Below, one piece after another: positions 32,123 through 35,100 of a stretch of 64,000 bases of DNA. The stretch comes from Escherichia coli. GTDB lineage: Bacteria > Pseudomonadota > Gammaproteobacteria > Enterobacterales > Enterobacteriaceae. The first letter of the stretch is position 1, and every line of letters starts with the position of its first letter. Location of the stretch: NCBI RefSeq assembly GCF_030013595.1, contig NZ_CP122768.1, one strand, 5' to 3'. Position numbers: made by a program.

Positions 32123-35100
32123 TAAAATAAATATCCTCCGGCATAGCCGGAGGTTTTTCAAATGCGCCTGTAAGGCTCTGTTACCAGCCGCGCCCTAACA
32201 GGCGCATACGATCTGACATTTGCATTCAACTTCGTTACTTACGGCCCGTAAACGGGCTGCCCGGATATGGAATCGATAACTGCTCCCCCATTTTATCCTC
32301 TTCAAGCTGGTGCTTTATGTAGTCCTGTATCTTCGCCGTGTTCTTACCCACCGTATCGACATAGTACCCTCGGCACCAGAACTCCCTGTTTCTGTATTTG
32401 AATTTCAAATCCCCAAACTGCTCGTAAAGCATCAGACTGCTTTTCCCTTTCAGATATCCCATAAAGCCGGATACGCTCATTTTGGGTGGGATTTCCACAA
32501 GCATATGGATATGATCTGCGCAGCACTCTGCTTCCAGAATCCGTACGCTTTTCCACTCACACAGCTTTCTCAAAATACTGCCTATCGCCCTACGCTTCTC
32601 TCCGTAAAACGCCAGTCTTCGGTATTTCGGCGCAAAAACTATGTGATATTTACAGTTCCAGCGGGTGTGCGCTAAGCTCTTTTCGTCCCCCATTGGGACC
32701 CCCTTTTGATTTCTTGTTTGACACTTGCAGTTGCCAGACCGCAAGGTGTTTTAACAAATCAAAAGGGGTTTTAATAACTGGCTCAAAGCTGAAAGCTTTC
32801 CGGAACCCCCAGCCTAGCTGGGGGTTTTCTGTGCACAATAAAACGGGAGGCGAAGGTGCCTCCCGTTTTGCTTTCTATAAGATACTGGATAGATATTCTC
32901 CAGCTTCAAATCATTACAGCTTCGGACCTGCTTCTACCAGCGCGGCACCCGCTGGGGTGTCGGTGTATTTATCGAAGTTGTCGATAAACAGTTTTGCCAG
33001 CGTTTCAGCTTTTTCCTGCCACTGTTCCGGAGAAGCGTAGGTGTTACGCGGATCGAGAATCTTCGTGTCTACGCCCGGCAGTTCGGTTGGGATCGCCAGG
33101 TTAAACATCGGCAGAGTGAAGGTTTCTGCGTTATCCAGCGAACCGTTGAGGATGGCGTCGATAATGGCGCGGGTATCTTTAATGGAGATACGTTTGCCAG
33201 TGCCGTTCCAGCCGGTGTTAACCAGATACGCCTGCGCGCCCGCCGCCTGCATACGTTTCACCAGCACTTCTGCGTATTGGGTCGGGTGCAGCGACAGGAA
33301 TGCCGCGCCGAAGCAGGCGGAGAAGGTTGGCGTCGGTTCGGTGATGCCGCGCTCTGTACCAGCCAGTTTGGCGGTGAAGCCAGAGAGGAAGTGGTACTGT
33401 GTTTGATCGGCAGTCAGACGAGAAACCGGCGGCAATACGCCGAAAGCATCTGCGGTCAGGAAGATAACTTTAGTTGCGTGGCCCGCTTTGGACACCGGCT
33501 TAACGATGTTTTCGATGTGATAGATCGGATAAGAAACGCGGGTGTTCTCGGTTTTTGAACCATCATCAAAGTCGATAGTGCCATCTTCACGCACGGTGAC
33601 GTTTTCCAGCAGCGCATCACGACGGATAGCGTTGTAGATTTCAGGTTCCGCTTCTTTCGACAGCTTGATAGTTTTTGCGTAGCAGCCGCCTTCAAAGTTA
33701 AACACACCGTCATCGTCCCAGCCGTGTTCGTCATCGCCAATCAGGCGACGTTTCGGGTCGGTGGAAAGGGTGGTTTTACCGGTGCCGGAAAGGCCGAAGA
33801 ACACCGCAACATCGCCTTTCTCGCCAACGTTGGCGGAGCAGTGCATAGAAGCGATACCTTTCAGCGGCAGCAGGTAGTTCATCATTGAGAACATCCCTTT
33901 CTTCATTTCGCCGCCGTACCAGGTGCCGCCAATCAGCTGCATGCGCTCGGTCAGGTTAAACGCCACGAAGTTTTCGGAGTTCAGACCCTGTTCTTTCCAC
34001 TGCGGGTTAGTGCACTTCGCGCCGTTCATAACGATAAAGTCTGGTTTGAAACCTGCCAGCTCTTCATCGCTCGGGCGAATAAACATGTTTTTGACAAAAT
34101 GCGCCTGCCAGGCCACTTCGGTGATGAAACGGACGGAAAGACGAGTATCCGGGTTCGCACCACAGAAAGCGTCGACAACGAACAGACGTTTGCCGGAAAG
34201 CTGTTTGGTCACCAGGCCTTTCAGATGCTGCCAGGTTTCCGGAGAGAGAGGTTTGTTGTCGTTCTTACCTTTGCCTTTGTCTGCCCACCAGAAAGTATCG
34301 CGAGTGGTATCGTCACGGACGATATACTTATCTTTTGGTGAACGACCGGTGAAGATCCCGGTATCGACGGCAACGGCACCCAGATTAGTTAACACCCCGC
34401 GCTCATAACCTGTCAGGCTCGGATCGAGCTCTTCCTGATACAGCAGGTCGTAGCTTGGGTTGTAAACGATATCATGTACGTCACTGATACCATAAGCCTC
34501 GAGTTCTTGCGGGGTCAAACCATTGTTAACGCGCATTTCACTGCTCCTTAGCCAATATGTATTGCCTGAATAGTAAAGTCTTTTTGGGGGTGTTAACCGC
34601 GACAAGGCTCATAGATTTACGTATCTGGAGAAATTCATATTTGACAAAAAACTCCGTGATTCCTGTCACGAAACGGTTGCTATTATCGCAGAAATAGCAT
34701 TTTAGGTGTGGAAAATGTTCTTAAAAGGTTAAATCTTGGTTTATATGGCGGGAATATTGTGAGTGGAATCGCATTCCTGAATGAAATTGATGCAAATTCA
34801 ATCGGTAAAGTATCGATTCACCACGCTAACTTTTTTTGATTATTTTCTGAAAAAAGCAAAATACTACGGCCCGGATGCGATAATTAACCCACTTTTTGAT
34901 TCTGGATAACTAACGTGGATAACGTTGAACTTTCACCCGCAACACGCTGGGGGATGATTGCTACCGGATTACTTCAGGGTCTGGTTTGCTACCTGCTGAT
35001 CGCCTGGCTTGCCGGAAAAAATCTCAGTTGGATTGTTTATGGCGTGCCTGCGACCGTCGCGTTTTCATCCGTTTTACTCTTCTCCGTGATCTCCTTTAAA

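Follow-up and report, generated by a model that had tools for sequence, protein, structure and literature searches.

An IS200 element almost certainly transposed recently into the gap between envZ and pckA in this Escherichia coli strain, where it forms one complete and apparently functional copy of the tnpA-only kind within the IS200/IS605 family. We located the copy in a window of 64,000 nucleotides from contig NZ_CP122768.1, the window being the whole stretch of DNA that was analysed. Alignment with the empty site of E. coli HCP5S3_I2 defines an insert of 712 bp at window positions 32125–32836, the ends of which may be shifted by at most 2 bp (to 32127–32838) owing to an AA ambiguity. A first-pass annotation had proposed an IS200-type element with a 152-aa Y1 transposase between the two genes. 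Matches to Pfam, NCBIfam and the Rfam family STnc490 bear this out, and the gap is indeed short and convergent, measuring only 76 bp without the element. The annotation had suggested the K-12 gap as the reference for defining the ends; alignment of the empty gap in HCP5S3_I2 shows that all 712 bp are missing there. The element itself is of an already known kind, belonging to the long-known insertion sequence IS200; what is new among complete genomes is the site of insertion.

HCP5S3_I2 is a close reference for the boundaries. It is 100% identical to the window over 5.2 kb of the left flank, has one mismatch in 1.7 kb of the right flank and, across 50 kb, departs from the window at just 14 mismatches and 5 small gaps. 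Its empty site consists of the two flanks joined exactly, save for the 2-bp AA ambiguity, and a target duplication is therefore absent. IS200 is oriented with its left end (LE) at the high coordinate and its right end (RE) at the low coordinate. The sequences at these ends, GTGCAC... and ...TTTATTT, do not form an inverted pair, and the copy thus has no terminal inverted repeats. The conserved unit, AAATAAATAT...TTCTGTGCAC, is also found in 9 other E. coli contexts. At ~0.7 kb, the copy holds tnpA and no tnpB, as judged from a family search of the tnpA ORF. An empty site at icd implies an element of 711 bp rather than 712 bp, which is probably due to an A-run length polymorphism between strains, and the hypT site, sought for resolution of the ends, has no uninterrupted counterpart among complete genomes. 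Since the icd site gave 711 bp, the 2-bp ambiguity of the ends at envZ–pckA stands. The features of the locus are collected in Table 1.

Table 1. Features of the envZ–pckA locus and the IS200 copy inserted there (window coordinates)
Feature	Position	Strand	Basis
envZ, 450 aa	30773..32125	+	ORF list
Complete IS200 element, 712 bp	32125..32836	-	Empty-site comparison with HCP5S3_I2
RE subterminal hairpin CCTCCGGC-ATA-GCCGGAGG (32135-32153), then TTTTT	32135..32158	+	Terminator-like scan, fold
Second, longer imperfect hairpin, between tnpA stop and RE subterminal hairpin	32162..32207	-	Inverted repeat, fold
tnpA, 152-aa Y1/HUH transposase, stop codon included	32235..32693	-	ORF list, Pfam, NCBIfam, motifs
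5'UTR stem-loop hiding the tnpA Shine-Dalgarno sequence, element nt 69-137	32700..32768	-	Inverted repeat, fold
Rfam RF01405 STnc490 (IS200 5' region RNA; art200 / 5'tnpA locus)	32703..32826	-	Rfam match
LE subterminal perfect hairpin AACCCCCAGC-TAG-GCTGGGGGTT, element nt 11-33	32804..32826	-	Inverted repeat, 100% complementary
Target T-run (TTTTATT) of the pckA terminator, IS200 LE joined immediately 3'	32837..32843	-	Junction analysis
Native bidirectional envZ/pckA terminator hairpin AAAACGGGAGGC-GAAGGT-GCCTCCCGTTTT, outside IS200	32840..32869	.	Empty sites, fold, terminator scan
pckA, co-oriented with tnpA	32914..34536	-	ORF list, strain comparison

The tnpA reading frame is intact. Its product matches Pfam PF01797 (Y1_Tnp; E = 9.1e-37) and NCBIfam NF033573 (transpos_IS200; 144.4 bits against a cutoff of 55) and is homologous to the solved structures 2EC2 (E = 2.4e-23) and 2A6M, the TnpA of IS608 (E = 3e-19). 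The HUH motif (H61-I-H63) and the catalytic tyrosine (Y125) align with the corresponding residues of the solved TnpA structures, and Y125 is the residue mutated in catalytically dead TnpA (PMC4513863). The Shine-Dalgarno (SD) sequence of tnpA, AAGGGGGU, agrees with the one quoted in the same study (PMC4513863). A promoter scan of positions 31900–33100 found no sigma-70-like promoter; the tnpA promoter has been called 'intrinsically weak' in the literature, a description that the negative scan fits without lending it weight.

The LE hairpin folds with −18.7 kcal/mol and is the known bidirectional terminator of IS200, which has been placed at nt 12–34 and halts ~85% of incoming transcripts (PMC4513863, PMC5435999). 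By analogy with IS608, it is also presumed to be the hairpin bound by TnpA. The stem-loop that hides the SD sequence (−32.1 kcal/mol, z −4.97) occupies the same place as the SD-sequestering stem described for IS200 at nt 69–138 (PMC4513863). The match to STnc490 runs over the full length of the model (1–124) and scores 146.4 bits (gathering score 56; E = 2e-31). Two further RNA families, Ysr202 (28 bits, gathering score 315) and BASRCI337 (16 bits, gathering score 229), match the terminator hairpins only, and these hits are meaningless.

At the other end of the element, the TAA stop codon of envZ (32123–32125) is preserved and IS200 begins 0–2 nt beyond it. The RE hairpin, situated 9 nt past the stop codon, has an 8-bp stem with 7 GC pairs, a 3-nt loop and a U5 tract; the terminator-like scan flags it on both strands (−15.5 kcal/mol on the plus strand and −15.9 on the minus strand). 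Every IS200 copy has such a hairpin and the empty sites are without it. The RE and LE hairpins align with each other, each is preceded by GAAAA, and the differences between their stems preserve pairing. The RE hairpin is likely the one to which TnpA binds at this end. The second, longer hairpin on this side folds with −28.8 kcal/mol (z −4.61). The gene with the rearranged 3' end is envZ, which has been cut off from the terminator it shared with pckA. Judged from its sequence, the RE hairpin with its T5 tract probably stands in for that terminator, although its fold is less stable than that of the native hairpin (−15.5 against −22.3 kcal/mol).

Both AST262 and HCP5S3_I2, whose sites are empty, carry the native terminator, which folds with the same energy on both strands (z about −5.4). 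In the window, it lies between pckA and the LE of IS200 and is now 712 bp farther from envZ. On the pckA side, neither the hairpin nor the opening 7 nt of its U-tract (UUUUAUU) has been altered. Since 32840–32869 is the native terminator and lies outside IS200, 3'-end formation of pckA should be unchanged, and the sequence gives no reason to expect otherwise.

In its make-up, the copy closely resembles the IS200 elements of Salmonella and E. coli, which share the 152-aa TnpA with HUH motif and Y125, the restriction to tnpA, the lack of inverted or direct repeats, the LE terminator hairpin at about nt 11–33, the SD stem at about nt 69–137, the SD sequence itself and the STnc490/art200 match. 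It differs from Salmonella IS200 in length (712 bp here, 707 bp quoted) and has ~95% nucleotide identity to the E. coli copies that RefSeq labels IS200C. With IS608 of Helicobacter pylori and with ISDra2, it has in common a homologous TnpA, subterminal hairpins at both ends, an RE cleavage point 10 nt 3' of the hairpin foot, insertion without duplication 3' of a short target beside LE, and an A-rich stretch 5' of each hairpin, where the guide lies. Unlike IS608 and ISDra2, however, the IS200 copy is missing tnpB, its LE cleavage site is ~10 nt rather than 19 nt from the hairpin, and it targets a T-run preceded by a hairpin instead of TTAC or TTGAT. Pairing is perfect in the IS200 hairpins and imperfect in those of IS608. 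The orientation of the envZ–pckA copy also differs: its tnpA-sense ('top') strand is on the negative-GC-skew strand, opposite to the lagging-strand-template bias described for the family, although this is a single case.

The T-run at the LE junction is not peculiar to this locus. We sampled junctions from E. coli (10 copies) and from other Enterobacterales (30 copies); 39 of them have flanks long enough to score. LE abuts a T-run in 10/10 E. coli copies and in 30/30 copies from other Enterobacterales, and positions −1 and −2 are both T in 39/39 scorable flanks. In 37 of the 39 copies, a hairpin at least as stable as −12 kcal/mol stands beside the junction; within the window, the corresponding control values are 8% for T-run sites and 11% for randomly chosen positions. 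As LE lies at a T-run in 39/39 cases and the T-run follows a GC-rich hairpin in 37/39 independent copies, IS200 lands just past intrinsic terminators. This LE junction rule (hairpin, T-run, IS) can be used to define the ends of IS200 and to predict landing sites.

Other mobile elements show related behaviour. IS1541 of Yersinia, a close relative of IS200 that likewise expresses STnc490 (PMC4513863), has a copy between pheL and pheA, in the region of the attenuator terminator (PMC3082878), and this position fits the landing rule; IS1541 differs from the IS200 described here in its host and its much higher copy number (~40 per genome). Group IIC introns, too, integrate immediately downstream of the stem-loops of intrinsic terminators (PMC7923331), but they are retroelements in which the stem-loop is recognised by intron RNA–DNA pairing, a process unrelated to HUH transposition. 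An enrichment of terminators upstream of IS200/IS605 elements has been reported in a preprint as a family-level statistic only (10.1101/2025.07.22.666184). Our literature search for an explicit claim that IS200 or IS1541 targets terminators returned nothing beyond this statistic and the pheL–pheA case. Neither the nucleotide-precise LE rule nor the idea of a replacement terminator was found in the searchable literature, which does not extend to earlier, subscription-only work on IS200 and IS1541.

We tentatively propose that IS200-group elements are terminator-homing transposons: the A-rich guide of LE would read the T-tract, the host terminator hairpin, on single-stranded DNA, would itself belong to the target, and each copy would be insulated on both sides. 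Following the IS608 guide/cleavage-site mechanism (PMC3201880), IS200 would have travelled in the form of a single-stranded circle ('peel and paste') and the GAAAA guide just 5' of the LE hairpin would have paired with the T-run, so that the element would have been pasted 3' of it. The position next to terminators might instead, though less probably, reflect no preference of the transposase and result only from purifying selection, which would leave harmless insertions behind; all copies analysed are, after all, survivors in natural genomes. Yet the junction is precise to the nucleotide, at the 3' end of the T-run and always on the tnpA-sense strand, with TT at −1/−2 in every scorable flank, and selection for harmless intergenic sites would not yield such precision. 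In addition, the IS608 model predicts that A-rich sequence in the guides, which lie 5' of both hairpins, will select a T-rich target.

The retained pckA terminator would also shield tnpA from read-through, with the LE terminator as a back-up. Transcripts of envZ would meet the RE hairpin and its UUUUU tract 9 nt beyond the stop codon, and any read-through would run antisense across tnpA to the bidirectional LE hairpin and then to the native terminator. Since pckA keeps its terminator and the RE hairpin faces envZ, the insertion is expected to be nearly neutral. It is improbable that the weaker envZ terminator together with antisense or sRNA transcription measurably alters the stability or dosage of the ompR-envZ mRNA, or that one additional copy is of consequence for the supply of the regulatory 5'tnpA/art200 RNAs. 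Besides the difference in folding energy, such an effect would be in line with the control of genes in trans by IS200 5'UTR-derived RNAs in Salmonella (PMC5435999; bioRxiv 10.1101/2024.06.26.600842). Nevertheless, the RE hairpin, with its 7 GC pairs and U5, passes the terminator scan and is followed by two more terminators. Moreover, other strains have an RE abutting the stop codon of a convergent gene at sbcB, ynaJ and nupG, which suggests that the arrangement is tolerated, and as the relative HCP5S3_I2 already has 12 copies, one more would alter sRNA dosage little. Near neutrality thus remains our expectation for the envZ–pckA copy.

None of the 5,426 complete E. coli genomes, the two nearest relatives included, has an occupied site at this position. 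The flank is present in 5,424 of the 5,426, in some strains with 99.95–100% identity. The full 712 bp, in turn, are 100% identical to copies in at least 29 complete E. coli genomes, among them annotated IS200/IS605 tnpA elements. HCP5S3_I2, with its envZ–pckA site empty, has 12 places matching IS200 elsewhere, at least one of them at 100% identity; the window contains no further IS200 copy. The 100% identity to copies elsewhere indicates recent movement, although the literature pictures IS200 as nearly dormant, and strains that are 99.95% identical are polymorphic for presence or absence of IS200. Because members of the IS200/IS605 family excise precisely and without a scar (PMC3201880), an empty site taken alone may never have been occupied or may have lost its element. 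Ancestry of IS200 at this site followed by precise excision from the other E. coli strains is, however, extremely unlikely: the flank is found almost throughout and the insert nowhere, near-identical strains included, the identity to other copies speaks for recent movement, and a single gain is far more parsimonious. The proposal in the first-pass annotation that the element could serve as a strain or lineage marker is accordingly upheld, and IS200 at envZ–pckA is a clean presence/absence marker with respect to the closest sequenced relatives and all complete genomes compared.

The coordinates given by the first-pass annotation, 32163–32870, are wrong at both ends and are ruled out by the empty-site alignment. 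An element with these limits, bringing in the pckA-side hairpin and now shaping pckA 3'-end formation, is scarcely conceivable: the interval has the textbook size of IS200 (708 bp) and hairpins at both limits, but the empty sites of two strains hold 32837–32870 in full, 32125–32162 is missing from both yet travels with every other IS200 copy, and the pckA terminator hairpin with 7 nt of its U-tract is untouched. The length of 708 bp is a coincidence. Structured ends had been correctly anticipated, as subterminal hairpins are present at both, but the true RE hairpin (32135–32153) had been omitted, apparently because it was taken for the envZ terminator, and the host terminator (32840–32869) had been included. 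The strong hairpin beside pckA is thus the bidirectional terminator of the host, and the suggested change in pckA 3'-end formation falls with its assignment to the element, since it still separates pckA from IS200. The envZ 3' end, for which an effect had been raised merely as a possibility beside that on pckA, is the one truly rearranged.

For annotation, the hairpin directly after envZ should be assigned to IS200 and the hairpin beside pckA to the host, and studies of the ompR-envZ 3' end in this strain have to reckon with a native terminator displaced by 712 bp. If terminator homing is true, the host terminator and the LE hairpin would together block read-through from upstream, while the RE hairpin with its U-run would give the convergent neighbour a replacement terminator, as for envZ. 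IS200 has been described in the literature as nearly dormant, and terminator homing, if true, would explain how such a supposedly dormant insertion sequence reaches dozens of harmless copies.

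The gap between envZ and pckA spans 788 bp in the window, compared with 76 bp in E. coli genomes that lack the insert, and contains a 152-aa open reading frame. Its product matches Pfam Y1_Tnp (PF01797, E 9e-37), NCBIfam transpos_IS200 (144 bits; cutoff 55) and solved IS200/IS605 transposases, IS608 TnpA among them (2A6M, E 3e-19). H61-I-H63 forms the HUH motif and Tyr125 is the catalytic residue; replacing this tyrosine by phenylalanine renders TnpA catalytically dead (PMC4513863). The element is thus IS200, as the first-pass annotation had proposed from its 152-aa Y1 transposase and structured ends. 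All IS200-defining features that could be tested are present (an HUH/Y1 TnpA, tnpA as sole gene, subterminal hairpins and the left-end layout); there are neither inverted nor direct repeats, and the sequence is identical to annotated copies. This is an ordinary, already known element, and the novel point is the insertion site alone, not seen in any complete genome searched. The window carries a single IS200 copy.

The flanks are those of E. coli. Over 5.2 kb, the left flank matches the pig isolates HCP5S3_I2 and LCP30S3_I5 with 100% identity; in HCP5S3_I2, the right flank has one mismatch in 1.7 kb and the site is empty. Walking inward from both flanks against this empty site delimits an insert of exactly 712 bp, 32125-32836, which a 2-bp AA ambiguity could shift to 32127-32838 at most; the alignment reveals no target duplication. 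An independent empty site (AST262) and an independent occupied site (Nord58, between raiA and bamD) agree with these boundaries, so the interval of the first-pass annotation, 32163-32870, is shifted: the copy was correctly recognised and mis-delimited. The omitted segment, 32125-32162, holds a hairpin, CCTCCGGCATAGCCGGAGG, followed by TTTTT, which travels with every IS200 copy. The strong hairpin beside pckA that had been assigned to the element (32837-32870) is the host's own bidirectional terminator, shared by envZ and pckA (AAAACGGGAGGC-GAAGGT-GCCTCCCGTTTT), and already exists in empty sites. No intact empty counterpart of the hypT site usable against the 2-bp ambiguity was found among complete genomes. 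For the IS200C copy downstream of icd, comparison with another strain's empty site gives 711 bp, versus 712 bp here, and the hairpin-to-hairpin distance is 692 bp in both; the difference likely reflects a target A/T-run that varies in length, and one-nucleotide variability in joining is conceivable.

Features of the IS200 copy and its neighbours (LE, RE: left and right end; energies in kcal/mol)
Feature	Position	Strand	Details
envZ	30773-32125	+	
pckA	32914-34536	-	
T-run joined to left end	32837-32843		
Left terminus		tnpA strand	GTGCACAG, then GAAAA
LE perfect hairpin	element nt 11-33		CCCCCAGC-TAG-GCTGGGGG, AA/TT base pairs included; -18.7
Long stem-loop	element nt 69-137		buries SD AAGGGGGU; -32.1, z -5.0
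tnpA, 152 aa	32235-32693	-	
Imperfect 46-nt hairpin	32162-32207		within RE, between tnpA stop and subterminal hairpin; -28.8, z -4.6
RE		tnpA strand	GAAAAA, then hairpin CCTCCGGC-TAT-GCCGGAGG, then ATATTTATTT to right end

The left-end features agree with the published IS200 map, which places a terminator at nt 12-34 and a stem sequestering the SD AAGGGGGU at nt 69-138 (PMC4513863). The left-end hairpin has been described as a strong terminator, active in both directions, at which ~85% of incoming transcripts end (PMC5435999). LE and RE hairpins can be aligned with one another, stem differences keep pairing, and GAAAA precedes both. This arrangement agrees with the IS608 paradigm, where each end has a subterminal hairpin bound by TnpA and short guides 5' of the hairpins base-pair with the cleavage sites (PMC3201880). 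No function for the 46-nt RE hairpin was found in the IS200 literature examined, and a scan of 31900-33100 gave no sigma-70-like promoter.

Rfam STnc490 (RF01405), the IS200 5' region RNA, matches at 32703-32826 with 146 bits (gathering score 56); the match lies on the minus, tnpA-sense strand and begins at the left-end terminator hairpin. The family appears to represent the sense 5' region, whereas STnc490/art200 is described as lying antisense to the 5'UTR of tnpA (PMC4513863). The weak Rfam hits Ysr202 (28 bits; gathering score 315) and BASRCI337 (16 bits; gathering score 229) are only terminator look-alikes. Elsewhere in the window, an ES036 (CssrF) sRNA match (2858-2900, plus strand, 43.6 bits; gathering score 37.6) lies downstream of a fimbrial gene cluster, before glpD.

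In all 10 E. coli copies compared, a T-run on the tnpA-sense strand leads directly into the left end GTGCAC, and each T-run is preceded by a GC-rich hairpin in the style of an intrinsic terminator. A scan for the left terminus in one genome per species gave 32 loci, from Citrobacter, Brenneria, Kluyvera, Mangrovibacter, Yersinia, Entomohabitans and other genera: a T-rich tract occupies the junction in 30/30 loci with enough flank, with a clear GC hairpin before most. Of 39 flanks long enough to score, which come from independent copies across many Enterobacterales, all have T at positions -1 and -2, and 32 to 38 have T at positions -4 to -7. A hairpin of -12 kcal/mol or stronger ends beside the junction in 37 of these flanks; within the window, the control rates are 8% at T-run sites and 11% at random positions. 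Since the gene beside the left end is also co-oriented with tnpA wherever annotated (speC, icd, dgcZ, plaP, uspE, bamD, pckA), IS200 sits just past the terminator of the upstream co-oriented gene.

This pattern looks like terminator homing. By analogy with IS608, a T-rich target would be expected from the A-rich guide lying 5' to the left-end hairpin. In these surviving copies, the terminator hairpin may itself be recognised or may merely mark sites where insertion does no harm. Terminator enrichment upstream of IS200/IS605 elements has been described in a preprint as a family-level statistic (10.1101/2025.07.22.666184), and the Yersinia IS1541 copy between pheL and pheA (PMC3082878) fits the terminator-adjacent rule. 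Two de novo IS200 hops are mapped in the supplement of PMC4513863.

The pckA terminator hairpin (-22.3 kcal/mol) is intact, as are the first seven positions of its U-tract (UUUUAUU); only the eighth base is altered, from U to G. The suggested influence of the element on pckA 3'-end formation is therefore unsupported. On the envZ side, the shared terminator of the empty site begins a few bases past the envZ TAA. The stop codon is preserved, and the RE hairpin, which scores as a terminator (8-bp stem with seven GC pairs, 3-nt loop, UUUUU; -15.5 kcal/mol), now comes first, 9 nt past it. Read-through from envZ would run antisense to tnpA into the left-end hairpin (UUUUCU on the plus strand) and then the native terminator. 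Judged from sequence, the insertion is expected to be near-neutral, because of the RE hairpin, the terminators downstream and the recurrence of this layout, in which the right end directly adjoins the stop codon of a convergent gene, at sbcB, ynaJ and nupG in other strains. Of the proposed influence on envZ 3' ends, a small effect on ompR-envZ mRNA 3'-end stability is possible.

GC skew is positive on the plus strand throughout 1-64000, which places the active tnpA-sense strand on the leading-strand template. The reported tendency of the family is the reverse, towards the lagging-strand template (PMC5027513), although a single copy proves nothing.

In some E. coli, such as strain 0H18, the envZ-pckA gap holds a ~740-bp relE/parE-nadS toxin-antitoxin module, inserted between the shared terminator and pckA, with its own terminator-like hairpin beside pckA; small modules therefore land in this gap recurrently.

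IS200-like sequence occurs in 2,644 of 5,426 E. coli genomes, with as many as 35 places in one genome. At least 29 complete E. coli genomes have copies at other loci that match the 712 bp with 100% identity; HCP5S3_I2 is one of them and has 12 matching places. Copies annotated as IS200C are ~95% identical. None of the 5,426 complete genomes searched carries the insert at envZ-pckA. Over 50 kb (1-50683), 14 mismatches and five small gaps, plus the insert, separate the window from HCP5S3_I2. Since gntT and a fimbrial chaperone are annotated as frameshifted in HCP5S3_I2, some of these gaps may stem from homopolymer sequencing errors in one or other assembly. A recent gain in the lineage of this strain is the simplest reading. 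Such a gain makes a good presence/absence marker, in line with the first-pass annotation: the site is unoccupied in complete genomes and empty even in the near-identical HCP5S3_I2, and the insertion at envZ-pckA is thus useful as a strain marker.
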